A DNA stretch of 64,000 bases from an uncultured Spirochaetota bacterium (GCA_963835575.1 CAWIGG010000002.1:1664001-1728000), one strand, 5' to 3'. Positions 14,276 to 57,402 are shown, counted from the stretch's first letter. Numbers and translations: made by a program. Notes: generated from the letters alone by a model not told the origin.

Positions 14276-15061
14276 TCAACCTTTCTTTTTTTTAAATATT
14301 TTTTTTATCCCGCGGGTAATTATCCGTACAATATGTCTGGGAATAATATAAATAAAAGTAATCGTTACAAGCGCAGTATTAAGCACACTGATGTGAAAAT
14401 TATCTTTAAATCCTTTAAAGTGGCTCACTCTCTCCTCAGCCGGAGGATAATAAACACCAATGGGTACAATTTCCACAGGATAGTCGCGCCATATCCATCT
14501 GACCAGCGATTCCAATTCAAAATCATATTTAACAGTAAAAAAATGGAATTTATTCATTCTTGAAACCGTGTATAATCTATAGCCTGATTGAGAATCCTTA
14601 AGGTCCCGGTTAGTTTCCAATTTCACCCAGAAGTTTGAAAACTTCCTTCCGAAAACACTTTTTTTAGGAATGCTCTGATCCGTCATATCGCGGTTGCCGA
14701 TGATTAAGATATCCTTTCCCGGCTTCACTTTTTCCAGGAATTTCGGGATGTCGGAAGGATAATGCTGGCCGTCAGAATCGAGAGTGATCGCATATTCATA
14801 TCCCAATTCTTCCGCTTTTTTCAGACCCTTTCTTAAGGCGGCGCCCTTGCCCTGGTTTTTTGAAAAAGAAACAACGTCTATTTTATTTTTAAAGCGGTTC
14901 AGAATACTCTCTGTTTTATCTGTACTCCCATCGCTGACAACGATGACATTCCTGGTATATTCCAGTGTTTCAATGATCACTTTCTCGACAGTCTTCTCGT
15001 TATTGTAAGTAGGGATAATTACACAAAAGTTTATGTCAGAATAACTCCTGTTGTTTCTCAT
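14276..15061 (-). CDS. GT2 glycosyltransferase (aryl-polyene/flexirubin-cluster type)
   Basis: IIPTYNN, DGSTD, GKGAAL, LDSDGQH, DSQSGYRLY, RVSHF. Confidence 0.88.
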   Translation of the reverse strand: MRNNRSYSDINFCVIIPTYNNEKTVEKVIIETLEYTRNVIVVSDGSTDKTESILNRFKNKIDVVSFSKNQGKGAALRKGLKKAEELGYEYAITLDSDGQHYPSDIPKFLEKVKPGKDILIIGNRDMTDQSIPKKSVFGRKFSNFWVKLETNRDLKDSQSGYRLYTVSRMNKFHFFTVKYDFELESLVRWIWRDYPVEIVPIGVYYPPAEERVSHFKGFKDNFHISVLNTALVTITFIYIIPRHIVRIITRGIKKIFKKKKG

Positions 15062-15218
15062 TTACTAGCTTCCCCTTTTTCATAAATTGAGCCTTTGATA
15101 ACGGCAAATCGAAAGGCCTTATTTTCGGGAGTTATTTCAATATTTAAGGGTGGATTTTGAAATTGTATCCTTTATGTCCAAATAAATCCGTGTCACCTGA
15201 ATATTCAGTTTCTTTAAT

Positions 15219-15833
15219 CTATATATTTTTGTCTTTTTTGAGAGCGTCCAGAAATTCCTGAGAATTGACCATTTTCACGGTTTCACATCCTATCTGGTTC
15301 ATGATATCATTAAATGCTTCCACCATAGGGTCGTAAGACACGACGATTCCAAATCCAGTGCTCTTGAAAATCTGCTTTTTATACAGGATAGTGGATCTAT
15401 CGAAAGCAATGAGTTGAATTTCAATGGAACATTCAATCTTGTAACCCATGTATCCGTCACACCAGAATTTCTTAATGAAGATGTCCAGGGATGGCGAGCT
15501 ATTTTCTACGACTAAATAACCACTTTGCGAAAGGGCTTGTTTTATAGTTTTTTTTACTTCCTCAGCGACAGTCGTTCCTTTTTCTGAATTTAAAGACCAG
15601 GGATTGCCGTATCCGCCGCGAACCGTGCCTAATCTTGATGGTTCATTTTTACCGTATTCCACATCACGTGCATCGATCACATTTCTAATCGTAATGTCCC
15701 CGTAATTGCCTCCTTTATCCGAATATTGCGCCCTGGTAAAGGAAATTGCAGGAACACAGCTCAAGAGACACATGCATACTATATCGGCAAACAAGAAAAA
15801 TGCAAATTTAGAGATTGTTTTATATTTTATCAT
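15219..15833 (-). CDS. Hypothetical lipoprotein (YajG-like)
   Basis: LLSC lipobox; V.DAR and LG.VRGGYGNP motifs. Confidence 0.55.
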   Translation of the reverse strand: MIKYKTISKFAFFLFADIVCMCLLSCVPAISFTRAQYSDKGGNYGDITIRNVIDARDVEYGKNEPSRLGTVRGGYGNPWSLNSEKGTTVAEEVKKTIKQALSQSGYLVVENSSPSLDIFIKKFWCDGYMGYKIECSIEIQLIAFDRSTILYKKQIFKSTGFGIVVSYDPMVEAFNDIMNQIGCETVKMVNSQEFLDALKKDKNI

Positions 15834-15931
15834 GTTTCATTATCCTATCTAAAAAAACCAAACTGGGAAAATTCTACTTGATTTCTGAAATTAATGCAAA
15901 TAATTATTTAGTTATCAACTATCTTGTTAGA

Positions 15932-17622
15932 CCTAAACTGAGCGATTCTTTTATTAATTCAAAAAATCGGCCTGTTAAACGGGTGGGGTTTTAGAAATTT
16001 TAAGGAGTGAGATATTACCCATCCAATTTAAAGTACAAGACCCTTTAGAAAAGGTCCTTATTTGTTGAAATTTTAGTTTTGAGCGCAATACCCCCTTATC
16101 CGGTTTTTTAGCTTTAATAATTTATATTGGGACAACGAACAGGCATTTGTCCCAAACTTTAAATAGCCCCAATTCGTCTATTACTTCATGCCGAAATTTC
16201 AATACAATTTTTCTGCTTCTTCTTACGATCTTTCCGGCTATGTCAATAAAAAGCCGTCTTACAGTGTCCGGATAACTGCCAATTGGGAAGCTATCTGAAA
16301 GCGCGTCTTCCTGCATAGCAATCAATAAATTGCGGGATATCAGCATCAGAAAATAGTATGCGGCATTTGAGATAAACCTTTTGAAAGGGAGTGTTTCATC
16401 CGCAAACTCCTTCACGCTCCGATTTACCAATTCATCCTTCGCCCTTAAGAGATAAAGTTCGATAATCTCTTTAGCCGCCAGGTATTTTTCCAGTCCTGCC
16501 TTTTTTAGTAATTCCTGATTATATAAATTTGTGTAAATTAAATTATCCGGTTTCGCAAAATCCAGAAGGTACTCATCTCCATTATTTGCCCTTTTACAGT
16601 AAATCGCCCGGCGGCCTTTGCTCCATTTCTCCCGTTTGTCTCTAAAATCACAATATTCCCAGACATCGCCTTTTCTCTCAAAATTGCTCCAGCCTTGCGG
16701 AAGCTTGCGGATCAAATCCAGTTTGATGTCGTTGTACATTGTACCGCCGCAGATATAGTAATGTCCGTTTTCTTCCATCCATTCATAGTATTTCTGATCA
16801 TTGAACCCACTATCTGAAACAACAATAACCGGCACGTCTTTATCGTATTCTTTACGGATCTTTCCGATGATTTTTTCAAGCGATTCGTTCAGGTCATTCC
16901 CGTGATTACAATGTGCGCTCCCTTCCCGAAACAGCGAATAAATCACATAAGGCCCCCAATAGAACAATAAAGGATGAAACCCTTTTACCATTTTATATGT
17001 CAGAGTTACGCCTTCCCGTTTTCGCGCGCTGTTATTGTCTAATACCGTCGAATCAACACCAAGTACAATTACCTTTGGCCGGGTTATTTTGAGCCGCCAG
17101 ATAAACAACTCCAGTAAAAAATGACCTAAAGCATTCACCATTTTTTCCGTTACGGCGCCTAAGAACCGTTTCATTGTATGTGAGGATGCCATTTCATTCT
17201 TTGAGAACTCAATTGTCCCGGCATACCCCATATTGTTTTTCAGATCGTCAAACCTCGTCATAGTATTTTGGCTTCCGTCAACGAAAAAGCAGAATATCTG
17301 CTTTAGTATATTCTCGATCTTTTGCCCTTTTGAACTTTTCCGCAGGCCGTCAAATATTCCAGTAATCAGCGATAATACGTGTGTCCCTTTGAGGTATCTG
17401 CAAAAAAATGCCAATCCTCCCCTGCCGCTTAATAGATCATCCGTTATTCCAATTTCAGAAATCTCATTTTTGCAATATTTATTTTTTTCAGCCATAATTA
17501 ACCTGCTTTTGCACCCAATGGGTGTTTTTTCGGGGTAAGGATGGCGGCAACCATTTCCTTACCCCATTCTATTTTAGCATGGTTTTTTATAATTCGGCTA
17601 ATAAAGAATCGCTCAGTTTAGG
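15932..17622 (-). mobile_element. IS1380-family insertion sequence (1691 bp)
   Basis: 20-bp perfect IRs CCTAAACTGAGCGATTCTTT / AAAGAATCGCTCAGTTTAGG; 5-bp target duplication TTAGA (15927-15931, 17623-17627). Confidence 0.92.
16122..17495 (-). CDS. IS1380-family transposase
   Basis: LSGRGGL, GVDST, REG...Y....GFHPL, DSGF, F..NAAY; 457 aa. Confidence 0.88.
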   Translation of the reverse strand: MAEKNKYCKNEISEIGITDDLLSGRGGLAFFCRYLKGTHVLSLITGIFDGLRKSSKGQKIENILKQIFCFFVDGSQNTMTRFDDLKNNMGYAGTIEFSKNEMASSHTMKRFLGAVTEKMVNALGHFLLELFIWRLKITRPKVIVLGVDSTVLDNNSARKREGVTLTYKMVKGFHPLLFYWGPYVIYSLFREGSAHCNHGNDLNESLEKIIGKIRKEYDKDVPVIVVSDSGFNDQKYYEWMEENGHYYICGGTMYNDIKLDLIRKLPQGWSNFERKGDVWEYCDFRDKREKWSKGRRAIYCKRANNGDEYLLDFAKPDNLIYTNLYNQELLKKAGLEKYLAAKEIIELYLLRAKDELVNRSVKEFADETLPFKRFISNAAYYFLMLISRNLLIAMQEDALSDSFPIGSYPDTVRRLFIDIAGKIVRRSRKIVLKFRHEVIDELGLFKVWDKCLFVVPI

Positions 17623-17727
17623 TTAGATTGATGTTTAATTTGAGATTTTTTATGCATCTTGATAAAATATTTCCTGCTTGAATCATAGTTAGACTCTATA
17701 TATTTATTGATTTTCAGGAGATAATGC

Positions 17728-18981
17728 TTGAAGATAAAACTGATTTACCCAAAATGGCCGAAACTAAAAAATCAGCCGGAATTCAACCTTCCGCCGCATG
17801 GGCCAGTCTGTTTTGCCGCAGCGCTTCCTAAAGATATTGATATTTCATTCTGCGATGAAAATGTAGAAACATTACATTTTGATAATGATGCCGATTTGAT
17901 CTGCATGTCAGTAATGCTGACATGTCAAATACCCAGAGCATGGCAGATTGCCGACACCTATCGTGAAAAGGGTAAAAAAGTTATTTTCGGCGGAATTGCC
18001 GTTATGCTTCATTATGAGGAAACCCTCCAGCATGCTGACAGTGTATTTTTAGGCGAAGCAGAGGGCCGGATGGAAGAGGTCATTAATGATTTTAAAAACG
18101 GAGCATTAAAAAAAACCTATGATTTTCTTCTTAATTTTCCCGATACAAAATTAATCGGGACCGCACGCAGGGACATATTAAACCGCGAGCTGTATAATTT
18201 CCGCGGAGTACAAATGGTTGATTTAGTGCACGCTTCACGCGGCTGCCGGTTTAACTGCTTTCCATGCTGTACCCCCTATCTGGGAGGATGTAAATTCCGT
18301 CCGCGGCCTATTGAAAAGGTGGTTGAAGAGCTGAAAAACATTGATAATAACCGCTTGTTTATTGTAGACAACTCGCTTTCTCAGGACGACGAATGGGAAA
18401 AGGCATTATTTAAAGCTATAGTCCCCCTTAAAAAAAAGTGGGTGTCCCATCCCATAAAAGACGACGATGAGATTCTTGATCTCGCGGCTGAAGCCGGATG
18501 CTGGTATATCTATCAGGCAGTTGTGGATACATCAGACCACATTAGAAAGAAAATCAAGCGTCTTAAGGAACGCGACATCGGCGTCGAAGGGACCATCATT
18601 CTGGGCACTGATGATCATGACGAAGATTACATAAAACGGCTGGTTGATTTTCTTATGGAGATAGAGCTTGATCTTGCTGAGTTTACAATACTGACGCCTT
18701 TTCCGCATACGCCGATCCGGACCCAGTTGGAAAAACAGGGGCGCATCCTGCATAACGATTGGACAAAATATACCTGCGGCGAAGTGGTTTTTAAACCGGC
18801 AAAGATGAGCGTTGATTCTTTACAGAATATGTATGAATATGCATGGAATACATTTTATGGGGATTTTAGTAAAGAAGTAAAAATGGCAAAGTTATATTTG
18901 AAAGTCATTGAGCTTGAAAAAAAGGACGGGACATTTAAACAGCCGAGATTAAGCCCTGAACGCGGCTGGGTAAAAATCTAA
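17728..18981 (+). CDS. B12-binding radical SAM protein (island copy 1)
   Basis: SRGCRFNCFPC; B12-binding-like N-terminus (DEN, VIFGGI, GEAEG); TTG start with AGGAG RBS. Confidence 0.88.
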   Translation: MKIKLIYPKWPKLKNQPEFNLPPHGPVCFAAALPKDIDISFCDENVETLHFDNDADLICMSVMLTCQIPRAWQIADTYREKGKKVIFGGIAVMLHYEETLQHADSVFLGEAEGRMEEVINDFKNGALKKTYDFLLNFPDTKLIGTARRDILNRELYNFRGVQMVDLVHASRGCRFNCFPCCTPYLGGCKFRPRPIEKVVEELKNIDNNRLFIVDNSLSQDDEWEKALFKAIVPLKKKWVSHPIKDDDEILDLAAEAGCWYIYQAVVDTSDHIRKKIKRLKERDIGVEGTIILGTDDHDEDYIKRLVDFLMEIELDLAEFTILTPFPHTPIRTQLEKQGRILHNDWTKYTCGEVVFKPAKMSVDSLQNMYEYAWNTFYGDFSKEVKMAKLYLKVIELEKKDGTFKQPRLSPERGWVKI

Positions 18982-19021
18982 TTATAACGGCCTCAGACAA
19001 TCCATTCTTAAGGAAAAAGCA

Positions 19022-19921
19022 ATGCGGAAAGCACCTAAAATTATTATTAAAAAACGGGGAAACGCTTTAGGTTTTTTAATTTTCCGGACAGCCTTGAAAC
19101 TATTGGGATTGCGCGTTACATATTTTATGCTTTATTTTTTGTGTTTGTATTATCTTTTGTTTGACCGTCAAGCGGTCACCGGCGCATCAGCGTACTTAAA
19201 AAGAAGATTTCCCCACAGTAATTATTTCCATTTGCGCCTGCATATATACAGACTTTTTATCAGTCAGGGCAAGCAGCTGCTTGACCGTTACGCGGCAGTT
19301 TCCGGAGCTGTAAATTTCGACACAACACTGGAAGGCAGTGAGAATCTGCAGGAACTATTAAATGCCAGAAAAGAGGGATTTATTTTATTGACTGCTCATG
19401 TCGGCAACTGGCAGACCGCTTTAATGACGTTAAAAAATTTAAAACGAAACGTATACTTATTAATGCGGCCGGAAGACAATCCGGAGATTGAGAAATCATT
19501 AGGCATTAGAAAAAAAAACGATCATATACATATTATATCCCCTGAAGAAGGGCCTGATGGAATAATCAAAATTATGAGCGCAGTTAAAGAAGGCGGCGTT
19601 GTGTCTATTATGGGAGACCGCAAATATAACTTTGAAGCCTTAGGCGCCGAGTTTCTCAAAGATACCGCTTATTTCCCTTATGGCCCGTTTTCTATAGCGG
19701 CCGCGTTGAATTGCCCGATGGTTGTTCTCCTGTCAGCCAGAGTTTCGTATAAGAAATATCTTGTCGATGTGAGAAATGTTTTGTATCCAGTCTATAATCG
19801 CCCTGATAAAAAGAAGGAACAGCTGAGGGTATTTATACAGCAGTTTGCAAGGGTATTAGAAAATTATACCCAAAATTACCCTTATCAATGTTTTTTATTT
19901 CACGATATATGGAAAAACTAA
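19022..19921 (+). CDS. LpxL-like (lipid A lauroyltransferase family) acyltransferase
   Basis: LLTAHVGNW, MGDR, FP.GPF..AA, YPYQ.F.F.D.W. Confidence 0.82.
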   Translation: MRKAPKIIIKKRGNALGFLIFRTALKLLGLRVTYFMLYFLCLYYLLFDRQAVTGASAYLKRRFPHSNYFHLRLHIYRLFISQGKQLLDRYAAVSGAVNFDTTLEGSENLQELLNARKEGFILLTAHVGNWQTALMTLKNLKRNVYLLMRPEDNPEIEKSLGIRKKNDHIHIISPEEGPDGIIKIMSAVKEGGVVSIMGDRKYNFEALGAEFLKDTAYFPYGPFSIAAALNCPMVVLLSARVSYKKYLVDVRNVLYPVYNRPDKKKEQLRVFIQQFARVLENYTQNYPYQCFLFHDIWKN

Positions 19922-19934
19922 AAAGGAGAAGAAA

Positions 19935-20216
19935 ATGGCAGATCCCAAAGAACAACAGCTGGCTGAGATCCGCACAAAAATCAAAGAGCTTTTAGTGAGT
20001 CATTTATCATTACAAAATGTCAAACCCGCAGACATTAAAGATGATGAAATTCTTTTTGGCGAAGGGCTTGGCCTTGATTCCTTAGACGCTGTCGAGATTG
20101 TGGTTCTTTTACAAAGGAATTTTGGCCTGCAAATTAAGGATATGAATGAAGGCACAAAAATTTTCTATTCCATTGATACATTATCACGTTATGTTCTGGA
20201 AAACTGGAAAAAATAA
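19935..20216 (+). CDS. Acyl carrier protein 1
   Basis: LFGEGLGLDSLDAVE phosphopantetheine motif. Confidence 0.93.
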   Translation: MADPKEQQLAEIRTKIKELLVSHLSLQNVKPADIKDDEILFGEGLGLDSLDAVEIVVLLQRNFGLQIKDMNEGTKIFYSIDTLSRYVLENWKK

Positions 20217-20218
20217 AC

Positions 20219-21388
20219 ATGGATAACGGTAATGCAGTAATATCCGGGATGGGTGCGATTTCAGCCTGCGGTAATACAATCAGCGAAACCCTGGATGCAT
20301 TTACAGAAAATAAAAGACATGGCGGACCGGTATCCTTATTCCAGACTAACCTATCGTATCCGGTTTTTGAAGTTAAAGACCTGCCAAAATTTAACACTAA
20401 CTCTATGCGTTCATTGGATCTGACCGTAGCGGCGGTAAACCAGGCCGTTGAAGAAAGCGGGCTGACCGATTCGCTTAAGAGCTTCCGTATTGGAGTGTGT
20501 CTGGGCACAACTGTAGCCAGCCAATTAAATGATACTGATTTTTACCGTCAATATAAATCTACGGGAAGCGCGCCGATGAATTCGGTTGACCGGTATCTTA
20601 ACGGCAACCTGGCTGATGCGGTTGCCGAATACCTTGGTATTAAAGGGCCGCGGTGCACAGTTGTAAACGCCTGTTCTTCCGGCACCGACGCGATCGGCGT
20701 TGGGTTATCATGGCTCAGGACTGATTTAAGCGATATAGTAATCTGCGGTGGAGCGGATGAACTGAACAGGGTCCCATATACAGGTTTCGGCTCGCTGGGT
20801 GTCGTCAGCGATTCTTTATGCAGACCTTTTGATAAAGAACGTTCCGGTTTAAACCTGGGCGAAGGCGCCGGGATCGTCATTATAGAAAAAGAGGATGTTA
20901 TCAATAAACGCGGGAAAAAAACAGATCTTTTCATTAATGGATACGGCCTGGCCTGCGACGCATATCATTTGACAGCGCCGCGCCCCGACGGCAGCGGCCT
21001 CAAAAATGCTCTTTCCAGGGCGCTTAAGGAAGCAGGGATTACTCCTGAACAGGTTTCATTTATTAATGCTCATGGAACAGCAACTAAAGACAATGACAAA
21101 GTTGAAGGCCGCGTATTATCTGCTGTTTTCGGTTCAAAGGTCAAATTTCTTTCAACAAAAGGTTTTACAGGACATACTTTAGGCGCCGCCGGCGGATTAG
21201 AAGCGGTATTTACCGCGCTAGGATTACGGTATGGCTGGATACCTGCGAGCCCTGGTTTTAACACCCTGGATGATGATATCGGTATTGCGCCGGTCAATCA
21301 AAAAACCGGGATTACGGGCAGTTACGCGGTTTCAACATCATTAGCGTTCGGCGGGAATAATTCCGCTTTAGTAATTTCGAGGAAATAA
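20219..21388 (+). CDS. Beta-ketoacyl-ACP synthase (KS1)
   Basis: NACSSG, NAHGTAT, GHTLGAAG, AFGGNN (Cys-His-His intact). Confidence 0.93.
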   Translation: MDNGNAVISGMGAISACGNTISETLDAFTENKRHGGPVSLFQTNLSYPVFEVKDLPKFNTNSMRSLDLTVAAVNQAVEESGLTDSLKSFRIGVCLGTTVASQLNDTDFYRQYKSTGSAPMNSVDRYLNGNLADAVAEYLGIKGPRCTVVNACSSGTDAIGVGLSWLRTDLSDIVICGGADELNRVPYTGFGSLGVVSDSLCRPFDKERSGLNLGEGAGIVIIEKEDVINKRGKKTDLFINGYGLACDAYHLTAPRPDGSGLKNALSRALKEAGITPEQVSFINAHGTATKDNDKVEGRVLSAVFGSKVKFLSTKGFTGHTLGAAGGLEAVFTALGLRYGWIPASPGFNTLDDDIGIAPVNQKTGITGSYAVSTSLAFGGNNSALVISRK

Positions 21389-21389
21389 T

Positions 21390-22412
21390 ATGAATATCAG
21401 CGGCATAGGAATTGTTTGTCATCGCGGGCGCGGCATTGAAAATCTGCAGAAGGCATTGATTGAAGGCTGGAAAAAGCCTTATCAGGCTTATTATGTGCCC
21501 GCTGAAGCAATGAATGACAGCAATGTATTGAAAGAAATGCGCCGAGCGGACGATTTAAGCAAAATGGCATGCATTGCCGCATATGATGCATTTGCCGACA
21601 GCGGACTCGGCCAGGAAGAAAAACTTTCCATGGGAATTATTCTAGCGACTGCCTTCGGGCCGCACCCGACTACATTCCGCTTTCTTGATGATATAATAAA
21701 ATATGGGGATTCTCAGGTATCGCCGACTATATTTTCTCATTCAGTCCATAATGCCGCTTTGTCCTATGTTTCATACGCATTGCAAAGCAGGGGCCCGACT
21801 TTAACCATTACTCAATTCGCCCATTCATTTCATCAAGCCGTGTCCCTGGCGGAAGCCTGGTTAAATGAAGGCCGCTGTGATTACATATTAGTCGGTACTG
21901 CCGACCAATATGGGACAGTGATGAGCTACATATGCGGCCAAAAATTGAAAATCGCCGATGACGGCATCATCCGGCCTTTTTTATTCGCATCCGGCCCTGC
22001 CGCTGTTCCCGGAGAGGGCAGTGTGTTTTTTTTATTAACGAATAAAGAAACAAAAAAGTATGCGGCAATAAAAGCCTTATCAGCCGAAATTTCCGGCGGG
22101 GAACCGGATATGTGTATTTTAGACTGCGATGGTATGACGGGAAATGAGGAGAGATATATTCCGGTCAAGAAAACCAATTCACTTGTATCCAGCTATACGC
22201 CGCTGTTCGGCAGCATGCTTACCGGCAATAGCTTTAGCTGCGCCGTATCCGCTTTGATGTTAAAGAACCAGTATTGCTATGCCGCGCCGGTAAAAGACAA
22301 TCCGCATAGTCTCAATTTGTGCGTTTCGTCCGGACCGGAAGCCTTGAATAAAATTAATTGTCTGAAGTACGGCTGTAAAGGCGAGAAAATCGAATTTTCA
22401 TTGACGCGGTAG
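21390..22412 (+). CDS. Ketosynthase chain-length-factor-like partner (CLF1)
   Basis: MRRADDLSKMA and SPTIFSHSVHNA; catalytic Cys/His motifs absent. Confidence 0.8.
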   Translation: MNISGIGIVCHRGRGIENLQKALIEGWKKPYQAYYVPAEAMNDSNVLKEMRRADDLSKMACIAAYDAFADSGLGQEEKLSMGIILATAFGPHPTTFRFLDDIIKYGDSQVSPTIFSHSVHNAALSYVSYALQSRGPTLTITQFAHSFHQAVSLAEAWLNEGRCDYILVGTADQYGTVMSYICGQKLKIADDGIIRPFLFASGPAAVPGEGSVFFLLTNKETKKYAAIKALSAEISGGEPDMCILDCDGMTGNEERYIPVKKTNSLVSSYTPLFGSMLTGNSFSCAVSALMLKNQYCYAAPVKDNPHSLNLCVSSGPEALNKINCLKYGCKGEKIEFSLTR

Positions 22413-22424
22413 GAATTAAAGGGT

Positions 22425-23768
22425 TTATCTTTTTCTGGTTTTAAGCAGGAGATCCCATAAAGGCCCTCTCATCCCCGAGTTATGAAGGAACCTGTTTCTT
22501 TCAGCGAATCCAGTCCAGGGGAATACCCAGCTTCTTTTTTCTTTAAAAGATTCTATAAGATAATTGTTCAGCCACTTTATATCAATTTCAGGCGAGAAAT
22601 AATATTTTTCCTGTTGAAACAAAACGCTTTCATCCGGTATCAATCCTTCCTTTTTCGCCAGCTCACAAATACCGGTATTTGGAAAAATCCGTACTCCCAT
22701 TCCTCCCAATACGACGCAGAATTCCAGCTCCGACAAATTTTTTATCCCTTCGCGCACAGTTTCACTGGTTTCGGCCGGTCCTCCAAATATGATAAAATGC
22801 GAGCCGGGGATTTCATATTCTGCAAAAAGATTATTGGCCAGCCTGACATCATCCCAATGAAAATTCTTCTTCATCCCCTTAAGAGTACGGTCGCTCGAAC
22901 AGTCTGTCCCCCATTCCACACAATGCAGGCCTGTCCGCTTCATCAGCAGGACTTCATCCCTGTTAAACTTTGCCGGCCTCATATAACATGTCCAGGGGAT
23001 GGACATCTCCCTGCGGGCCATTTCTTCCATAATTAATAAATACTGATTATTTTCATCGTTAAACACTGAATCTGTAAAAAATATAAAATCGGCGGCATGC
23101 CGGTTTATTAAATACTCTATTTCATCAACCACACACTCCGGCTGCCGGAAAATATAACTATTACCTTCCAGGCTTGGGTAGGAACAGTACAAACATTGAT
23201 GCGGGCAGCCTCTTTTTGAGTAAATATTAAGCATTCCACCCTGCTTCAGGTAGAATTCGGACAGCCGCTTTTCACGATCAAGAAAATAATCATTTTCTCC
23301 CGAATGATCTGTTGCCCCATGAATAACCGGATTTACAGGGGGATTTTTATCTTCCAATTGCTCAATAAGTTTCGGAAGACTTATCTCTCCCGGGCCGATG
23401 ATCCCGTAATCTGCTCCCAGATATTCAAGAAATTTCTCGGGAAAAATTGTATAAGCGGTTCCGCCTAAAATAATTGGAACATCAATCTTTTTTTTTATTT
23501 TTTCAATGATAGATTTGTATTGAACTATAAATGAATGAGGATCATTAAAATTTACATTATCTATATTCCTCATCGATAAAGCGATATAGTCCGGTTTAAA
23601 CTCCGATAGGATATTATCTATAGATTTTTCACCATCAACCAATAAATCAATTAATTCCGTCTCATGCCCTGATTCTTTCACGGCGGACGCAACCAGATTC
23701 GCTCCCAGAGGATAAACAGGATAGGGATCATCCATCAAGTTAGCGGATATCATCAATAATTTAGCCAT
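22425..23768 (-). CDS. Lipid-biosynthesis-type B12-binding radical SAM protein (island copy 2)
   Basis: LMISAN..DPYPVYPLG, SMRNIDN, KRGCPHQCLYC, FTDSVFN; resembles the TIGR04072-type family as recalled, not searched. Confidence 0.85.
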   Translation of the reverse strand: MAKLLMISANLMDDPYPVYPLGANLVASAVKESGHETELIDLLVDGEKSIDNILSEFKPDYIALSMRNIDNVNFNDPHSFIVQYKSIIEKIKKKIDVPIILGGTAYTIFPEKFLEYLGADYGIIGPGEISLPKLIEQLEDKNPPVNPVIHGATDHSGENDYFLDREKRLSEFYLKQGGMLNIYSKRGCPHQCLYCSYPSLEGNSYIFRQPECVVDEIEYLINRHAADFIFFTDSVFNDENNQYLLIMEEMARREMSIPWTCYMRPAKFNRDEVLLMKRTGLHCVEWGTDCSSDRTLKGMKKNFHWDDVRLANNLFAEYEIPGSHFIIFGGPAETSETVREGIKNLSELEFCVVLGGMGVRIFPNTGICELAKKEGLIPDESVLFQQEKYYFSPEIDIKWLNNYLIESFKEKRSWVFPWTGFAERNRFLHNSGMRGPLWDLLLKTRKR

Positions 23769-23774
23769 ATTTAA

Positions 23775-26366: not shown

Positions 26367-26443
26367 ACTTGAGGTTAGATAGGCCGGCGGCTGTTTATCA
26401 TTTGTTATTATATTATTTTTCTGAATGGATTGGCTTTTAGCGG

Positions 26444-41238: not shown

Positions 41239-41246
41239 AGATCCTC

Positions 41247-42470: not shown

Positions 42471-42482
42471 ACAGCCTCCCTC

Positions 42483-43709: not shown

Positions 43710-43712
43710 AAT

Positions 43713-44384: not shown

Positions 44385-44513
44385 ATTTCTCCTCTTTAAT
44401 TCCAACTTAAAAAATTGTAACAAAAAGATATAATAAATGCAAAAAAATTCTATTTATAACAGGTTTTTGTTTGATACTGCAGGTTATCCTGTAATGACAG
44501 ACATTAGAGAATC

Positions 44514-49186: not shown

Positions 49187-49972
49187 TTATTTTCCGGTTT
49201 CAAGTATAAATCCTTTCTCTTTGAGAAACCGGATTGTTTCTTTCAAAGCATGCACCGTGGATTCCCTGTCATTCCTGCTCCAGGGCAGTATTCCGTCATG
49301 GAACATTATAATGGAAGGGGACTTTAACTTTCTCTTTATTCTATCAAATATTTTTTCTGCCGGGACTTTGGTATCAAGTGTCCGGATATCCCACATAACC
49401 GGTATCAAGTCCAGGGTTTTTATGACTTTGGCGATAACAGGATTTTTATGACCGATGGTCGGGCAATAGTATTTCGGCTTTATGCCTGTAATATTTTGTA
49501 TAATGGTATTTGTCCTGGCAATTTCTTCCAGAACCCTTTTATAACCGAATAAAAGTATGTTAAAAGGGTGCGAATAGGTATGGTTGGCGATTATATGATT
49601 TTCTCTATGCATTCTTTTAATAATCTCCGGATATTGTTCCGCTCTTTTTCCCATAACGGCAAAGAGAGCATGAATTCCCTCTGATTTAAGAATATCGAGG
49701 ATCTGGGGAGTATAGACAGGGTCCGGCCCGTCATCAAATCTCAATAAAATTCCGGGTTGATCATTAAAATATTCCTTTCCTTTTACTGTGTTAATGAAAA
49801 AGTTGGTTCTTGAAGAAAACATGCCGTAAATATAAAAAGCCTGCTGAAAACAAATGATAAGGATGATCCCAATTAATAAACACATATATGAACTGAATAC
49901 TACAGATAATAGAATTACAATTAATAGTCCGCAAAAGGCCGCTATTATTGTCAGATTAAATTTGGAAATCAA
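49187..49972 (-). CDS. Polysaccharide deacetylase (NodB-like) with N-terminal TM segments
   Basis: FDDGP, NHTYSH, IIMFHDG. Confidence 0.88.
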   Translation of the reverse strand: MISKFNLTIIAAFCGLLIVILLSVVFSSYMCLLIGIILIICFQQAFYIYGMFSSRTNFFINTVKGKEYFNDQPGILLRFDDGPDPVYTPQILDILKSEGIHALFAVMGKRAEQYPEIIKRMHRENHIIANHTYSHPFNILLFGYKRVLEEIARTNTIIQNITGIKPKYYCPTIGHKNPVIAKVIKTLDLIPVMWDIRTLDTKVPAEKIFDRIKRKLKSPSIIMFHDGILPWSRNDRESTVHALKETIRFLKEKGFILETGK

Positions 49973-49984: not shown

Positions 49985-50350
49985 TTAATCCTGATCTGGA
50001 TGATCTGATTTCCCAAAATAACCGGGAAACAGCGTTTTTACTAATTTGGCAAAAAAATAAACGGGGTATTTGATACAATCTTTCCCGGCCAGGGCGAGCC
50101 CTATGAAACCAAGAATCCAGCTTGAAACGTAAACAAAAGAACTGCTTATTAAACCGGTTGATATTTGTTTATTGATTCCTGAAAAAATCATTATCAAAAC
50201 CGGGGCCCCATAGCCGATAATAAAGGAAAAAACGAGTATAAAAATCCCGATCCGCATCATAATGGGCAGACTGGAAAAGGGCATTTTATCAAGCTTTTTC
50301 TCAACTTCCAGGTTTACCCACTCTTTAAATTTACTTTGCTGCATAAACAA
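49985..50350 (-). CDS. Small hypothetical membrane protein
   Basis: Two hydrophobic segments; overlaps the methyltransferase stop. Confidence 0.55.
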   Translation of the reverse strand: MFMQQSKFKEWVNLEVEKKLDKMPFSSLPIMMRIGIFILVFSFIIGYGAPVLIMIFSGINKQISTGLISSSFVYVSSWILGFIGLALAGKDCIKYPVYFFAKLVKTLFPGYFGKSDHPDQD

Positions 50351-50966
50351 ATAAAAGAATCCCTTTGTTAAGGAAGTTTTTAAGACACAAATCCGTCAGC
50401 TCTTTTACTGCCAGGCCATTATCTGTAAGAAGCATTTTCATTCTCCTTTTGCTGAAAGCATTCATAAAAATCCCCTGTCTGAAATAATTTCCCAGTCTTC
50501 CCCACCACCGCCAAAAGGTGTCATGAGCCGTTGTTAAAATGAGATGCCCGCCCGGGGCCATAAGGCCGGAAATTTTTGCAAACAGGGCTTTTGCATCCTT
50601 AATATATTCTATGGCGGAAAAGCTGGTTATGATATCAAACTTTTCTTTAAAAGGGATTTCCATAAAATTACCGCAGATCTGTTTAATATTGGATATCCCC
50701 TTCTCTTTTGCTTTTTTAGACATAATGTCAAGCATATTTCCGGAAATATCTACTGCTGTAACCTGTCTTACCAATGGCGCGGCTTCCAGGGTAAACCTGC
50801 CTGTTCCGGCCCCGATCTCCAATAAAGAATGGTTTTTTCCGGCAATCTTTTTAATGGCGTCTAATGCGATTTCCCATTCCGGAACTCTGACAAAGCCGAA
50901 TTCATCCTGCTCCTTATCATAAACAGACGCATTGGTATTGTAAAAATTTTGAACTTTACTTTCCAT
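50331..50966 (-). CDS. Class I SAM-dependent methyltransferase
   Basis: LLEIGAGTG, AVDIS..ML, FDII, LMAPGG; start moved to MESKVQ at 50966. Confidence 0.88.
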   Translation of the reverse strand: MESKVQNFYNTNASVYDKEQDEFGFVRVPEWEIALDAIKKIAGKNHSLLEIGAGTGRFTLEAAPLVRQVTAVDISGNMLDIMSKKAKEKGISNIKQICGNFMEIPFKEKFDIITSFSAIEYIKDAKALFAKISGLMAPGGHLILTTAHDTFWRWWGRLGNYFRQGIFMNAFSKRRMKMLLTDNGLAVKELTDLCLKNFLNKGILLFVYAAK

Positions 50967-51022
50967 AAACCCCAATAACCTTTCTTTGATAAAATAATCT
51001 CTCCGCTGATATACAGAATTCC

Positions 51023-51355
51023 GCGCTGTCCCTCGGCAGGTTTGGTTCCCGTCATTCAACGAGTCCACAGGCTGTACAAAAAGTCGAATTTTTTACTAAA
51101 AGTGAACTTTTTTTTTAAAAAAATTAATTAACCACAAAGCTCACTGAGAACACAGAGATATTATAACTTGTTTTTACCAATAAGATAAAACAATTCACTC
51201 TGTGTTCTCCGTGATCTCCGTGGTAAAAATATTTGATTTTGGATATCTGTTCATAGCTAATTCAATAGTTTTTACACAATCTGTCACCAACCAAGCACAG
51301 TCCCCCGGTTTAAACGAGGGAGAAACACCAACCAAACCGGGTCGAGGAATAGCGC
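51023..51355. repeat. Three-layer nested inverted repeats (MITE-like)
   Basis: Outer GCGCTGTCCCTCGGCAGGTTTGGTT / AACCAAACCGGGTCGAGGAATAGCGC; middle CAGGCTGTACAAAAAGT (51068) / AGTTTTTACACAATCTG (51283); inner GAGAACACAGAG / CTCTGTGTTCTC. Confidence 0.7.
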
Positions 51356-51432: not shown

Positions 51433-52341
51433 TCAATATCCAAGCCTAATACCAGTATTGATATACATTCCCGATGAAAGGAAATCCTTACCCGCTTCCA
51501 CATTTAACTTGAACCAGCCTATCGCGATTTCCATCCCTGCGGAAAATACAAGCCCCTGGACTATTGAATTATCAGGGAGGAAGTTATCGGCGTTCTGAAT
51601 GAGCGAACTGCTGCCGGCGAATCCGGTCTGTGCCTGACCGAAAAGGCAATAATAATCCAGCCTTCCATAGAAATTAAACATGAAAAGCTGATTGTCCGCG
51701 AAGATCTCCAGGTTTAATCCGTTGTAATTCCAGCCCGAATTGAAATTCCCGGTATATGAAGCGTTCGTCCCTTCGATGACCGCCGATTGATTCATTTGCC
51801 TGCTCAGGGACCCGGATGTATAGCTGTACCCGGTCCCGGCATAAAGTCCGGTCATAAAAAGCGCGTCTTTAAGAAGATGGTAATAGAGGCTGGCGCCGAT
51901 CTTGAAATTATTCACGCTCGCGTTTTTAAAATTCAAGGCCGGAAGGAAGGAGACATCAATAGTTCCCAGAAGATCGGCCGGAAATGCCGCCGCGAGGGAA
52001 AGATTGACAGCCGGCATGTCTTCTCCGCTTCCGTAAATATTCTCCAGCGGTCCGAAGAGAGGGTACTGAGAATTGTCGATATTATAAAAAAACAGAGGGG
52101 CAACAGCATCGCCGAAAGACAGGTCCGCGGAAAAGGTTATCTGCCCCGGCACCCCTAAAACAGGTTCCGCTTTCTTCATATTGAGGTAACAGCAGATTGT
52201 ATCCCGTATCAGCCGGTTCTGAAAAGACATAAGCGCGGACTGTTCCCCGGCCAGGTCTGTACTGTCATAAGCCGTAACGATGGAAATTGAAAGCGTTCCG
52301 ATTATCGACAACATAAACCCGGTTTTAATAAATGCATTCAT
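51433..52341 (-). CDS. Exported protein, probable outer-membrane beta-barrel
   Basis: Signal peptide; Gly/aromatic-rich strands; ends TGIRLGY. Confidence 0.55.
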   Translation of the reverse strand: MNAFIKTGFMLSIIGTLSISIVTAYDSTDLAGEQSALMSFQNRLIRDTICCYLNMKKAEPVLGVPGQITFSADLSFGDAVAPLFFYNIDNSQYPLFGPLENIYGSGEDMPAVNLSLAAAFPADLLGTIDVSFLPALNFKNASVNNFKIGASLYYHLLKDALFMTGLYAGTGYSYTSGSLSRQMNQSAVIEGTNASYTGNFNSGWNYNGLNLEIFADNQLFMFNFYGRLDYYCLFGQAQTGFAGSSSLIQNADNFLPDNSIVQGLVFSAGMEIAIGWFKLNVEAGKDFLSSGMYINTGIRLGY

Positions 52342-52374
52342 ATTCGTCCTCCGGACGGTCTGTGAATATTATCA

Positions 52375-53897: not shown

Positions 53898-53930
53898 AAT
53901 CCTCCCTCTCTTTTAATTTCCGGCCGGATT

Positions 53931-54961: not shown

Positions 54962-55000
54962 TTTTCTGTATTCTTCATTATTTTAGACCATAAATTGGTA

Positions 55001-55693
55001 TTATTTTTTAAATATGGATTTCATAAGTATTGAAAACTGTGAACCGACAATTTCTTCCATATTCGATTCCAGAAGATCATAAGATTTTCCGCCAAAGGCG
55101 CCGCCGGCGGCTCTATCTTCTCCGATAGCTTTAAGTAAAACTTTTCCGGTAACACCGTCAACCAGGTCGAATTCAAGTTTTATTTTGGTGGAACCTGCTC
55201 CAAAACCAATCCAAAGCCTTAGAGATTCTGAACCGGGATCAACTATAACAGCTTTAGTTTTCAAAATCAGAACATTCACACCGGAGGGTGTTGTATCAGC
55301 TTTTTCCATGGGAATTATCAGAGAGGGCGCAAAAGAGCTGAGACTTTTCCAGTAAAAAGTATCGATACTATTCATAAACTTATTGATAATTATTTTATTA
55401 TCTTCATCATCTTTCTTCGCGGCTTCCTTTGTCTTGACATCGACGTCTTTATCATAAAAAACTGTATCCTTCTGGTCAATAGGCAAAACAATTATTTTAA
55501 TGTAATTTGAAACATCGATTGAACTGTTGAATGCGACAGATTCAAGAATATAATTGCTTGTACTCACCCAGGGATTTGATACCGACGGATAGCTTGCAGG
55601 CAAAGAATATACTTCCGGCCGTGAAGACCTGCACCCGGAAGCTATTAAAACCGTTAGAGACAGAATGGCAATAAAAAAAATGAGTCTTTTCAT
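55001..55693 (-). CDS. DUF4410-like lipoprotein
   Basis: IASGC lipobox; DPGS..LRLWIGFGAG motif. Confidence 0.7.
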   Translation of the reverse strand: MKRLIFFIAILSLTVLIASGCRSSRPEVYSLPASYPSVSNPWVSTSNYILESVAFNSSIDVSNYIKIIVLPIDQKDTVFYDKDVDVKTKEAAKKDDEDNKIIINKFMNSIDTFYWKSLSSFAPSLIIPMEKADTTPSGVNVLILKTKAVIVDPGSESLRLWIGFGAGSTKIKLEFDLVDGVTGKVLLKAIGEDRAAGGAFGGKSYDLLESNMEEIVGSQFSILMKSIFKK

Positions 55694-55920
55694 TTTCCCT
55701 CCTTATTATATTTTTACTAATGCAAAAAATCATAATTGAAATTAAGTAAAAATGCAAGAAAATAAATTAACTAATGTCAAAAAATAAACAAATTGTGTAT
55801 GTTCGATTGGACGGGTTAACACAGTTCATCTATTAAAGCTTGAGCCGCATCATAACCATATTAACACTTGGACAACCTTACAATCGCTTTGGCAATACTT
55901 CTGTATTATTGAGATGACCA

Positions 55921-57402
55921 TCAACTGGAATGGCCTTGCTTCGCGGGATCGAACTGATTTTTGGCGGCCAGAAAATCGGGCAGGTTTTTCAGCATATGCC
56001 AGAGTGAATGCCGGTGCTGCCAGATGCGCTTCCTGAACCTGCGGAGCCAGTCCCTGCTGGTATAAAAGCGCTTGACATGCTCGTTGTAAAGATGGTCGAG
56101 GCGTTCCTTTGATCCGATGCTTTTGGGAACAAAAACAAAATTGAGGCAGTTCATCTGTTTCCAGTCATCCTCGAACGAGCCTTCTTCCCGGATGGTTTTC
56201 CACAACGGCGCGCCGGGAAAGGGTGTGAATTTGGCCATGTTCATATCGTCAAGACCGAGCGACATGACAAAGTCGCTGGTCCGGCGGATTGAATCCTCGG
56301 TTTCCCCGGGAAGGCCCATCATGAAGAGGCCTTTTGCGCGGAGGCCGGCGGCCTGTATGCGGGCCACCGTGTCCCTGACCGCTTCCAGGGTAACGCCTGC
56401 CTTATGCTTTCTCAGCATGCCCGGGTCCGCGGACTCAATGCCCAGCGATACCATCAGGCATCCGGCGTCTTTGAGCATCTTGAGAAGCCTGTCCGGGGCA
56501 AAGCCGACGCGAACCGCGCAGTTAAACTGCATGTCGATGGGTTCCTTAATAAGCCTGCCGCAAAGCTCAACAATGCGCTTCTCGTCGGTGGTAAATAGAT
56601 CATCGTAAATATTGACATGGCGGATGCCGAACTTCCCGTTGAGATATTTTAAATGACTGTATATATACCCGGCGGAATTATAACGGAACCCTTTTTTGAA
56701 AACCGAACGGTCGCAGTACGAGCATTGGAACAGGCATCCGCGGCTGGTAACCATGGATGTGCATGGAAATTTCGCATAGCTGAAGAGCGGCAGGTTATAG
56801 CCCCTGGGAAATCCCTTCAATTTTTCGTAGGCGGGGAAGGGCAGAATATCCAGGTCTTCTATCATTTTACGCGGGCTGTTTTCAACAACATCCCTTCCGC
56901 TGCGCCAGACGATGCCTTTCACATCAGCGGGATTCCCGCCAAGCGCCAGCTCAGCCAGTGTCATTTCTCCTTCGCCCATGACAAGGAAATCGAAAGCGGG
57001 GTAATCCTTCAAAAGGGCCGCGCCAAGCGCCGAGCAATGAACACCGCCGCACACCGTGATGACGCCCGGACTGGCCAGTTTAAGCGCGGCCGCCATGTCC
57101 GCAGCGTCGGGAAAGGAAGAGGTTGTGGCTGAAAATCCGATTATATCGGCATTGAGCTTGAGTATTTCTTTGATGTTAACCCGGAAATCGGATGACGCAT
57201 GGGGACCAAGGCAGTCATGGATGAAAACCTCGCTGCCTTCCTTTTCCAGCCATGCCGCGATTGAGAGGATCCCATGGGGTATCATACGGTTTGCCGCCGT
57301 GATTACATCCCTGCTGCCCTTGATCCAGTTTGAACCGCGGGGGTGGACGAGGACAATGCGCCGCTTCCTTCCTGCCGCCTGAATTTTATTCATATATTCC
57401 AT
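55921..57402 (-). CDS. B12-binding radical SAM protein (island copy 3)
   Basis: PHGILSIAA, GGVH, GEGE, TSRGCLFQCSYC, YDDLFT, GLPGET, TPFPG. Confidence 0.9.
   Translation of the reverse strand: MEYMNKIQAAGRKRRIVLVHPRGSNWIKGSRDVITAANRMIPHGILSIAAWLEKEGSEVFIHDCLGPHASSDFRVNIKEILKLNADIIGFSATTSSFPDAADMAAALKLASPGVITVCGGVHCSALGAALLKDYPAFDFLVMGEGEMTLAELALGGNPADVKGIVWRSGRDVVENSPRKMIEDLDILPFPAYEKLKGFPRGYNLPLFSYAKFPCTSMVTSRGCLFQCSYCDRSVFKKGFRYNSAGYIYSHLKYLNGKFGIRHVNIYDDLFTTDEKRIVELCGRLIKEPIDMQFNCAVRVGFAPDRLLKMLKDAGCLMVSLGIESADPGMLRKHKAGVTLEAVRDTVARIQAAGLRAKGLFMMGLPGETEDSIRRTSDFVMSLGLDDMNMAKFTPFPGAPLWKTIREEGSFEDDWKQMNCLNFVFVPKSIGSKERLDHLYNEHVKRFYTSRDWLRRFRKRIWQHRHSLWHMLKNLPDFLAAKNQFDPAKQGHSS

Follow-up and report, generated by a model that had tools for sequence, protein, structure and literature searches.

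The window analyzed here is a stretch of 64,000 nucleotides from an uncultured Spirochaetota bacterium (GCA_963835575.1 CAWIGG010000002.1:1664001-1728000). Between positions 14276 and 57402 it holds a block of genes with a polyketide/fatty acid synthase (PKS/FAS) core (Table 1), a candidate for the synthesis of an outer-membrane aryl polyene (APE) lipid. The open reading frames (ORFs) of the window were scanned against Pfam (60 ORFs) and NCBIfam, and 62 window ORFs were compared by tblastn with stretches from five related genomes (G001, G002, G004, G005 and G007). The family scans bore out, position by position, the gene list of an earlier reading made from the sequence alone (hereafter the sequence-only reading): four ketosynthases (KS), two chain-length-factor-like (CLF) partners, two acyl carrier proteins (ACP), three B12-binding radical S-adenosylmethionine (SAM) enzymes, here called rSAM_a, T4072 and rSAM_c, and the other genes that it had named. 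From the family 2 glycosyltransferase (GT2) at 14276 to the last radical SAM gene, ending at 57402, the genes are 40-90% identical in the five relatives, and the span from GT2 to rSAM_c co-occurs in all of them, with differing gene orders. The flanking genes of the window have no match in the cluster stretches of these relatives, except for a cupredoxin-like ORF at 13421. Since the genes from GT2 to rSAM_c recur in five relatives while the flanks have no match there, the 43-kb block is a unit, more than a chance neighborhood.

Conservation varies within the block. The ORFs at 15219, 29792, 37292, 38543 and 55001 have no match in the stretches of the five genomes, and the only radical SAM or flavoprotein genes constant in all five are those at 22425 (T4072), 55921 (rSAM_c) and 31563 (CrtI-like flavoprotein a). 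The sequence-only reading had counted three radical SAM enzymes and two flavoproteins as parts of the cluster; the three just named are indeed fixed, whereas those at 17728 (2/5 relatives) and 35527 (1/5) are variable accessories, and the interval 35527-40444 has the appearance of an accessory insert. Two insertion sequences (IS) lie inside the operon and, the dehydratase excepted, all genes are full length by comparison with the relatives.

Table 1. Features of the 43-kb block, with strand and basis of assignment (TAL, tyrosine ammonia-lyase; MIO, methylidene-imidazolone; LPLAT, lysophospholipid acyltransferase; TM, transmembrane segment; ABC, ATP-binding cassette)
Position	Strand	Feature	Basis and conservation
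14276-15061	-	GT2, polyprenyl-/lipid-phosphate hexose type; left block edge	Glycos_transf_2, 89.9 bits; 61-77% identical in 5/5 relatives
16122-17495	-	IS transposase (DDE_Tnp_1_4); borders rSAM_a cassette	Pfam, 120 bits; no match in relatives' stretches
17728-18981	+	rSAM_a, B12-binding radical SAM, unnamed family	Pfam B12-binding, 37.1 bits; Radical_SAM, 28.4 bits, just below cut-off of 29.5
19022-19921	+	LpxL/ApeD-type acyltransferase (LPLAT)	Lip_A_acyltrans, 56.6 bits
19935-20216	+	ACP1	NF006617/PRK09184, 73.1 bits vs cut-off 70
20219-21388	+	KS1	PRK09185, 295 bits vs cut-off 407
21390-22412	+	CLF1	CLF-like
22425-23768	-	T4072, TIGR04072 'lipid biosynthesis B12-binding/radical SAM protein'	513.3 bits vs cut-off 360
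23775-24440	-	CLF2, short CLF-like partner of KS2	Pfam
24437-25543	-	KS2	PDB matches 9s5h_B, 133 bits; 6qsp_A, 123 bits; 7f28_B, 109.6 bits
25528-25995	-	4HBT/YbgC-type thioesterase	TIGR00051, 80 bits vs cut-off 68.7; 71-82% identical in relatives
26001-26884	-	Double-hotdog dehydratase	ApeP-like half 26444-26884; FabA/ApeI-like half 26001-26366
26898-28490	-	MIO ammonia-lyase, predicted TAL	Lyase_aromatic, 537 bits
28492-29799	-	FlxY/PaaK-type aryl-acid CoA ligase	NF053551 (FlxY), 444.4 bits vs cut-off 520
30066-30326	-	ACP2, generic ACP	Pfam/NCBIfam
30307-31566	-	KS3, ApeR-like	7f27_A, 307.8 bits
31563-33017	-	CrtI-like flavoprotein a	Pfam/NCBIfam; 5/5 relatives
32990-34213	-	KS4, FabB-like	Pfam/NCBIfam
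34197-34922	-	FabG/FlxB-like ketoreductase	FlxB, 306 bits vs cut-off 340; FabG NF004200, 279 vs 273
35527-37143	-	CrtI-like flavoprotein b	66% identity, in G004 only
37292-38158	-	Secreted protein	No match in relatives' stretches
38543-40444	-	Secreted alpha/beta-hydrolase	No match in relatives' stretches
40441-41238	-	LolA_like carrier	Pfam/NCBIfam
41247-42470	-	MacB/LolCE-type (FtsX/MacB) permease 1	Pfam/NCBIfam
42483-43709	-	MacB/LolCE-type (FtsX/MacB) permease 2	Pfam/NCBIfam
43713-44423	-	LolD-type ABC ATPase	Pfam/NCBIfam
44559-45221	-	Paralogous membrane protein 1	Sequence comparison
45580-46107	-	Paralogous membrane protein 2	5' end runs into IS
46043-47185	+	IS copy (DDE_Tnp_1 + DUF772)	Identical over 1143 nt to 10421-11563
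47672-48271	-	Alpha/beta-hydrolase-like lipoprotein	Pfam/NCBIfam
48443-49183	-	PlsC acyltransferase	Pfam/NCBIfam
49187-49972	-	NodB-type deacetylase	Pfam/NCBIfam
49985-50350	-	3-TM protein	Sequence
50331-51068	-	Class I SAM methyltransferase	Pfam/NCBIfam
51433-52341	-	Secreted protein, outer-membrane beta-barrel-like	Signal-peptide-like N-terminus; C-terminal aromatic residues
52740-53897	-	Secreted protein, outer-membrane beta-barrel-like	Signal-peptide-like N-terminus; C-terminal aromatic residues
53931-54785	-	Secreted protein, DUF3108-like	Signal-peptide-like N-terminus; C-terminal aromatic residues
55921-57402	-	rSAM_c, HpnJ/BchE/AprD4-like B12-binding radical SAM; right block edge	Radical_SAM, 76.1 bits; B12-binding, 70.2 bits

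Predicted activities of the cluster enzymes

The operon has, between its dehydratase and ACP2 genes, those for the ammonia-lyase and the aryl-acid CoA ligase; both are 64-89% identical in 5/5 relatives. The lyase scores below the curated cut-offs of the FlxA (453 vs 700 bits) and HutH (458 vs 539) models. It carries the ASG motif of MIO enzymes, the letters 'RSHAAG' at motif 1 and an 'NQD' that aligns to the same letters of tyrosine aminomutase and that we take to be motif 2. Its motif 1, like that of histidine ammonia-lyases (HAL), and its Gln at motif 2 make up the mixed pattern of FlxA, an assayed TAL in which, according to the accessible text of PMC3992019, HAL-like residues at motif 1 go with the residue of TAL and phenylalanine ammonia-lyases at motif 2. 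Since the lyase shares these mixed motifs and is the only MIO gene of the host genome, and since no urocanase match was found in that genome, which is 94% complete, it is predicted to be a TAL; a role in histidine catabolism was rejected on the latter two grounds.

In the ketosynthase alignment (A1), all four KS (20219, 24437, 30307 and 32990) keep the Cys-His-His of FabF/FabB-type enzymes, and the two CLF-like proteins (21390, 340 aa; 23775, 221 aa, N-terminal domain only) lack the catalytic Cys and His. The structural matches of KS3 to 7f27_A and of KS2 to 6qsp_A and 7f28_B, together with the CLF-like partners, reproduce the combination of a KS ApeR with a KS ApeO and its CLF ApeC that is found in APE clusters; the 6qsp chain matched by KS2 is presumably Xenorhabdus ApeO. 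The accessible part of PMC8358021 contains both 7f27 and 7f28 and deals with two Acinetobacter baumannii aryl polyene ketosynthases; we infer which of these codes is ApeR. The group running from ACP2 to the FabG-type reductase (30066-34922) is 54-90% identical in 5/5 relatives. No enoyl reductase was found among the cluster genes in the Pfam and NCBIfam scans. As a whole, the predicted biosynthetic backbone is APE/flexirubin-like.

All three B12-binding radical SAM proteins carry the CX3CX2C motif. The search of T4072 against the TIGR04072 model, which had been proposed along with the sequence-only reading, found a full-length member (model positions 1-443 of 443; 512.9 bits in the scan of the host genome), whereas the other two proteins, at 50 and 77 bits, are not members. 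T4072 is 60-74% identical in 5/5 relatives. Among other NCBIfam models it scores highest with BzaD (177 bits) and TsrM (143 bits), and its closest solved structure is that of TsrM (6wte, 110.7 bits, E = 7e-31). BzaD and TsrM both methylate aromatic carbons. In an alignment of 18 TIGR04072 relatives (A2), the equivalent of TsrM Arg69, the arginine under the corrin ring, is invariant (R67 of T4072; 18/18), and TsrM Glu273 is replaced by Val in all 18 (Val235 of T4072). In TsrM this glutamate, part of a GGE motif, ligates the unique iron, keeps SAM off the cluster and makes the enzyme non-radical, as stated in the accessible part of PMC9204698. T4072 therefore departs from the TsrM-type non-radical cobalamin methylases, with the Arg kept but the cluster-blocking Glu lost, which argues for genuine radical chemistry and makes it likely that ordinary radical SAM cleavage is retained. 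By analogy with its characterized relatives, its reaction is most likely the C-methylation of the aryl head or of a chain, cyclization being another possibility.

The second constant radical SAM enzyme, rSAM_c, is 70-85% identical in 5/5 relatives. It resembles HpnJ, at a score (172.4 bits vs a cut-off of 577.6) that denotes resemblance only, BchE (148 bits) and the AprD4 structure 6fd2 (88.9 bits). AprD4 acts on an amino sugar. The substrate of HpnJ is a glucosamine-bearing hopanoid, whose sugar ring the enzyme contracts (PMC9204698); with a GT2 and a deacetylase present here, the analogy suggests that rSAM_c may remodel the head group.

The third enzyme, rSAM_a, belongs to a family that no NCBIfam model claims (best TIGR04013, 66.6 bits vs a cut-off of 251) and for which no close solved relative was found (best PDB match 27.5 bits). 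The family counts 6261 proteins at E<=1e-40, of which the best 120 are 73-100% identical; names among the best matches include Omnitrophota, Desulfosarcina and Desulfococcaceae (Desulfobacterota), Elusimicrobiota, Thermodesulfovibrionia and Brevinematales. The family is thus exceptionally strongly conserved. Across records of several phyla rSAM_a keeps 73-84% identity; in those loci the identity of its TIGR04072 partner drops to about 40-48%.

On the side of the anchor, GT2 has sub-threshold NCBIfam matches to AglJ (92 bits) and to PpgS, a polyprenyl-phosphate N-acetylgalactosamine (GalNAc) synthase (64.8 bits); the latter resemblance fits a sugar-1-phosphate-lipid linkage. The anchor and head-group genes between 47672 and 51068 are 49-78% identical in the relatives. 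The methyltransferase at 50331 was considered as an orthologue of a solved anammox methyltransferase and set aside, its PDB matches at E<=1e-8 amounting to six generically named entries. The three secreted proteins between 51433 and 54785 are conserved in G001, G002, G004 and G007; language-model (atlas) features gave them a lead of 0.95 with low recognition, and no Pfam family matched them at E<=1. At the same relaxed threshold, the scan of 12 unassigned ORFs returned nothing usable except DUF4410.

The host genome has seven LolA_like genes and many LolCE-like paralogues, and its best LolCE match lies outside the cluster. For these reasons a housekeeping Lol system was rejected as the main interpretation of the genes at 40441-44423, and it is plausible that they form a dedicated export system. 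Elsewhere in this genome (G000:C5:185256-195601), six tandem genes for LolCE/MacB-type permeases adjoin the best LolA_like match, an unusual expansion of Lol-like export systems.

Distribution of the gene set and history of the rSAM_a cassette

Two related records (L026 and L027) are labelled 'uncultured Brevinematales bacterium' and cluster members carry the name '[Brevinematales bacterium]'. Brevinematales is an order of Spirochaetota. Together with four FlaA matches in the host genome, against none in 14 control genomes, these labels bear out the probable spirochete origin that had been deduced from the sequence alone. Eight public records labelled 'Bacillota bacterium' (L018-L025) also carry the cluster, with T4072 71-75% identical. 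They fall within the TIGR04072 clade of the Brevinematales-labelled relatives, so that the labels conflict, and we regard the 'Bacillota' ones as doubtful.

The family extends far beyond this order. TIGR04072 relatives number 1163 proteins at E<=1e-30, with source names that include KSB1, Sumerlaeota, Calditrichaceae and Phycisphaerales, and rSAM_a relatives exceed 6000 at E<=1e-40. Eighty metagenome loci were fetched, of which 39 reach at least 12 kb; in six of these, classed as close, T4072 is at least 60% identical, and the other 33 are classed as distant. Homologues were counted in the distant loci if they covered at least half of the query, and since the flanks span 10 kb, low counts of distal genes do not show absence. 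Counted in this way, KS1 and KS2 are each present in 30 of the 33 distant loci, rSAM_a and the LPLAT each in 27, ACP1 in 26, CLF2 in 25, the thioesterase in 24, CLF1 in 23, GT2 in 19, rSAM_c in 15 (44-48% identity; another 11 are cross-matches of 21-24%), PlsC in 10, TAL in nine (57-61% identity), ACP2 in eight, the FlxY-type ligase in four, CrtI-like flavoprotein a in three, and the deacetylase and the methyltransferase in one each. The usual order, on one strand, is [TAL] KS2 CLF2 rSAM_a T4072 [rSAM_c] [GT2] LPLAT ACP1 KS1 CLF1. The window and the distant loci thus share the combination that defines a 'ladderane-like' cluster, namely T4072 with KS/CLF pairs, LPLAT, ACP and thioesterase. The block can accordingly be regarded, from its gene content, as a Brevinematales copy of a cluster type that has been described since 2009 (PMC2649909) and is widespread in anaerobes. 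The novelty implied by the sequence-only reading was in this respect overstated, all the more so as the architecture is TAL-bearing in 9/33 distant loci. A literature search found no paper naming TIGR04072 and nothing related, by title, on biosynthetic gene clusters of Brevinematales.

The window departs from the usual order. In 54 of the 57 loci that hold rSAM_a, this gene lies on the T4072 strand, just upstream. In the window the genes are all present and their order differs: here, as in G007 and L045-L047, T4072 is followed by a convergent, inverted cassette of rSAM_a, LPLAT, ACP1, KS1 and CLF1, which rSAM_a heads in the window and in L045-L047. The usually tandem pair of radical SAM genes is therefore split and uncoupled in this lineage. 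The four genes that follow rSAM_a (19022-22412) are proposed to form a module for a second chain. Among the five relatives, only G005 and G007 have rSAM_a and its neighbors at high identity; at E<=1e-60, rSAM_a occurs in 3/41 related genomes and in 0/4 congeners.

The history of the cassette was followed with a quick IQ-TREE phylogeny of T4072 and a FastTree phylogeny of KS1, the latter built on the best KS1 match of each locus; for L050, L052, L054, L085 and L092 these matches were other KS paralogues, which fall outside the KS1 clade. All 18 close rows form one clade in the T4072 tree (SH-aLRT = 100). In the KS1 tree, 12 of these 18 form a clade of their own (G001, G002, G004, L020-L025, L043, L044 and L048), and the other six (the window, G005, G007 and L045-L047) nest among the distant L090, L107, L063 and L096 (support 99). 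Identities to the window follow the same division: 74% for T4072 and 42% for KS1 in the congener G002, 41% and 75% in L090. The two trees point to an evolutionary origin of the cassette (17728-22412) that differs from that of the remaining cluster. No remnant of a congener-type cassette was found between 15062 and 17727 when the ORFs of G002 were compared by tblastn with positions 13001-24500 of the window.

Some observations concern the edges and the neighborhood of the block. The cupredoxin/CoxB-like ORF at 13421-13861 (146 aa) adjoins GT2; G002 (63% identity) and G004 (48%) have it in the same position, and the cluster edge may include it. The window also holds a fourth radical SAM gene (737-2116), at a distance of 12 kb from the cluster, which matches the B12-binding family weakly (19.4 bits), is PhpK/BchE-like (49-55 bits) and finds only cross-matches of 22-28% identity in the relatives' cluster stretches. 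On the other side, divergent from the last cluster gene, lies an 821-aa fusion of a PAS-like region, a SpoIIE/PP2C phosphatase and an RsbW-type HATPase_c_2 kinase domain (57703-60168), without match in the same stretches. In G002, CLF1 and GT2 are separated (L033 2001-4972) by the genes for a GT1-type glycosyltransferase and for a 586-aa protein that joins an alpha/beta-hydrolase to a radical SAM/SPASM domain; the window has no counterpart of either, so that accessory genes vary within one genus.

Predicted product and competing readings

The interpretation that we favor, with a probability of roughly 0.6, is that the block is a Brevinematales copy of a 'ladderane-like', radical SAM-equipped relative of the APE and flexirubin clusters and makes an outer-membrane aryl polyene lipid. 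The MIO lyase would deaminate tyrosine to 4-coumarate, which the FlxY-like ligase would activate. ACP2, the ApeR-like KS3, the KS2:CLF2 pair, the FabG-type reductase and the double-hotdog dehydratase would then extend this starter to a polyene, and ACP1 with KS1:CLF1 would make a second chain, to be placed on a lysophospholipid by the ApeD-like acyltransferase. GT2 would add an N-acetylhexosamine to the lipid phosphate, the NodB-type enzyme would deacetylate it and PlsC would acylate it. T4072 and rSAM_a may act on a chain, with C-methylation as the likeliest reaction. Remodelling of the amino sugar may fall to rSAM_c and a change in the saturation or geometry of a chain to the CrtI-like flavoprotein, and the thioesterase may release intermediates. 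Finally, the LolCDE-like ABC system, the LolA-like carrier and the secreted beta-barrel-like proteins would move the lipid to the outer membrane. A product of this kind, primed by an aryl starter, tailored by radical SAM enzymes, anchored on an amino sugar or glycerolipid and exported, had been put forward by the sequence-only reading; it is the functional interpretation with the best support, and the product itself is inferred. That the chain would be methylated or cyclized, as the same reading proposed, is likewise supposition. It is conceivable, though on balance improbable, that the product represents a novel lipid class: a tyrosine-primed polyene glycolipid of the spirochete outer membrane, with a chain methylated or cyclized by the ladderane-suspect cobalamin-dependent radical SAM pair and an amino-sugar head remodelled by the HpnJ/AprD4-like third enzyme.

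Several observations weigh against the aryl polyene lipid. In 24 of the 33 distant loci no TAL accompanies T4072 within 10 kb, so that the substrate of this enzyme need not be aryl. The loss of the Glu273 equivalent makes the analogy to the polar aromatic methylation of TsrM incomplete. The rSAM_a gene was not found in 4/4 congeners, in which the cluster is otherwise retained, and is therefore dispensable there for whatever T4072 does. The FlxA, FlxY, FlxB, PRK09185 and HpnJ scores are all below curated cut-offs, and no family of the APE-type exporter ApeM, of the resistance-nodulation-division (RND)/MMPL type, appears among the Pfam matches of the 60 scanned ORFs. A 2026 review and a 2026 preprint, in their accessible parts, present the chemistry and pathway of the ladderane type as unsolved. 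Finally, the frameshift in the dehydratase and the two IS elements inside the operon of this genome may impair the cluster.

These signs of damage bear on whether the product is still made. The sequence-only reading had listed a hotdog dehydratase in the cluster; there are two such domains, split by a frameshift. The FabA/ApeI-like half scores 30.3 bits with FabA, above the cut-off of 23, and 20.3 bits with the ApeI-like Pfam family, below that of 28.5; the half at 26444 is ApeP-like by atlas features only (score 0.95). The protein is one ORF of 290-326 aa in 21/21 close-relative rows, about 16 of them distinct once re-fetched copies are allowed for, whereas in the window a 1-nt frameshift near 26466, just after '...IYEVR', puts the linker and the second domain in another frame. 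The IS at 46043-47185 overlaps the 5' end of ORF 45580-46107, in the middle of the long minus-strand operon, and seems to have been active recently: it is similar over about 1290 nt, with four mismatches, to the copy at 10421-11563 outside the cluster, and the second IS borders the rSAM_a cassette. Decay of the cluster in this genome, an explanation compatible with any reading of the intact cluster, would account for these features, yet the three-frame reading finds both hotdog halves intact, the second with its own ATG, and the remaining genes have kept their full length. Since distant loci carry stand-alone forms of each half (124-163 aa), the split dehydratase may still be functional, and the break itself may be genuine, through fission or decay, or may stem from misassembly at a short run of A (AA/AAA). 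On this evidence we consider decay unlikely, although it is the most credible of the competing explanations.

Somewhat less probable still is that an unusual fatty chain without an aryl group (polyunsaturated, methyl-branched or cyclized) is made by a core comprising the KS/CLF pairs, the radical SAM pair and the CrtI-like flavoprotein, with the TAL and ligase as an add-on for a separate or minor product. Chains of this kind have been proposed for the Kuenenia and Desulfotalea clusters. According to the accessible text of Rattray et al. 2009 (PMC2649909), syntenic genes occur in Desulfotalea, Geobacter and Pelobacter, and Desulfotalea yielded polyunsaturated hydrocarbons, not pigments. The many distant loci without TAL would also agree with such a product, as would the best PDB match of KS2, which is 9s5h_B rather than an APE ketosynthase. 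Nevertheless, the position and conservation of TAL and ligase inside the operon of all five relatives, the recurrence of TAL in nine distant loci, the lack of an encoded enoyl reductase and the strongly APE-like KS3 all speak for an aryl product. That the 43-kb span would consist of two or more unrelated adjoining operons (PKS/FAS core, housekeeping Lol and envelope genes) is very improbable: the insert and the ORFs at 15219 and 55001 find no match in most or all relatives' stretches and the export and anchor genes are rare in the flanks of the distant loci, but the span from GT2 to rSAM_c holds together in differing orders in all five relatives, away from its present flanks, characterized flexirubin and APE clusters hold the same types of export and anchor genes, and a better LolCE match exists elsewhere in the genome.

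If the block does make an aryl polyene lipid, it would extend the APE-type outer-membrane lipids to the spirochete phylum, and its TAL/ligase starter module predicts a colored, tyrosine-labelled product that should be easy to detect. The radical SAM enzymes of this family are standing candidates for ladderane formation, and a product has been identified for no case outside the anammox bacteria. The value of this copy lies in its being a tractable variant, with an aryl starter and with rSAM_a naturally present or absent. Its congeners keep TIGR04072 without rSAM_a and with a different LPLAT-ACP-KS-CLF cassette; the presence or absence of rSAM_a and the cassette swap within one genus offer a ready-made comparison for assigning function, in which the lipids of these organisms could show which reaction belongs to T4072 and which to rSAM_a.

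Comparison with known systems

The clusters of Kuenenia, Desulfotalea, Escherichia coli and Chitinophaga were compared through family models, PDB chains and papers. The sequence-only reading had linked the block both to APE/flexirubin and to 'ladderane-candidate' clusters; both links hold, no gene-for-gene match to a characterized cluster was found, and the radical SAM genes co-occur with the KS block in the relatives. As for the enzymes themselves, TsrM and BzaD are the nearest characterized relatives of T4072, which shares the corrin-side Arg with TsrM and differs from it at Glu273.

The ladderane-candidate clusters (Kuenenia kuste3335-3352 and Desulfotalea DP185x) were compared by their published description. 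The accessible text of Rattray et al. 2009 (PMC2649909) lists for Kuenenia SAM-radical enzymes, phytoene-dehydrogenase-like genes, divergent FabF paralogues, a phenylacetyl-CoA ligase, a glycosyltransferase, a deacetylase-like gene and a methyltransferase. The window shares with these clusters a TIGR04072-class enzyme above the cut-off, a second and often a third radical SAM enzyme, an active KS beside an inactive one, a phytoene-dehydrogenase-like flavoprotein, a PaaK-type ligase, a glycosyltransferase, a deacetylase-like gene and a SAM methyltransferase. Unlike them, it has a split radical SAM pair, an inverted cassette, a TAL for an aryl starter and a spirochete host, and nothing in it points to ladderanes.

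The flexirubin clusters of Chitinophaga pinensis and Flavobacterium johnsoniae (flxA-flxY, darA/darB) share with the window the starter pair of TAL and FlxY-type ligase, the motif pattern of FlxA and an FlxB-like reductase. The accessible text of PMC3992019 also gives them a deacetylase, a glycerolipid acyltransferase, LolA, a glycosyltransferase and an exporter, all of which have counterparts here, and mentions neither 'phytoene' nor 'radical' in an enzymatic sense. The FlxA-, FlxY- (444/520) and FlxB-like proteins of the window nevertheless all stay below the NCBIfam cut-offs. The sequence-only reading had seen no DarA- or DarB-like genes; for DarB this agrees with the window, which has no KS-III-type ORF, the single ACP_syn_III_C match of the genome lying at C2:310 kb, 1.37 Mb from the cluster, whereas DarA itself was not searched. 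Since the Flx scores are sub-threshold and the single KS-III-type gene is far away, the cluster does not count as a flexirubin cluster in the strict sense.

The clusters for APE and aryl polyene lipids (APEL) of E. coli CFT073, Xenorhabdus doucetiae and A. baumannii (apeA-R) were compared on the core set apeO/R, apeE/F, apeC, apeI/P, apeQ and apeM, as given in the legend to Fig. 1 of bioRxiv 10.1101/2020.12.19.423268. The window shares the ApeR-like KS3 and the KS:CLF pair, two ACPs and a ketoreductase in the roles of ApeE/F and ApeQ (ACP1 and FabG both above model cut-offs), a thioesterase, an LPLAT, a GT2, a LolA-like carrier and a SAM methyltransferase; its two hotdog dehydratase domains may correspond to the pair ApeI/P. 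Unlike the APE clusters, it shows no ApeM-type RND exporter and no ApeH-type loader, with a LolCDE-type ABC system and a TAL plus FlxY-type ligase in their place, and its three B12-binding radical SAM enzymes and CrtI-like flavoproteins have no counterpart among the named ape genes. In the solved APEL structure, the aryl polyene is esterified to GalNAc-phosphate-glycerol, and the glycerol also bears a conjugated C26:5 acyl chain and a saturated one; ApeD (LPLAT) places the second chain, ApeJ (a glycosyltransferase) adds the sugar and the polyene, and ApeE and ApeF provide one ACP per chain (bioRxiv 10.1101/2020.12.19.423268). A lipid of this architecture would explain why the window holds two ACPs, two KS:CLF pairs, an LPLAT, a GT2, a PlsC and a deacetylase.

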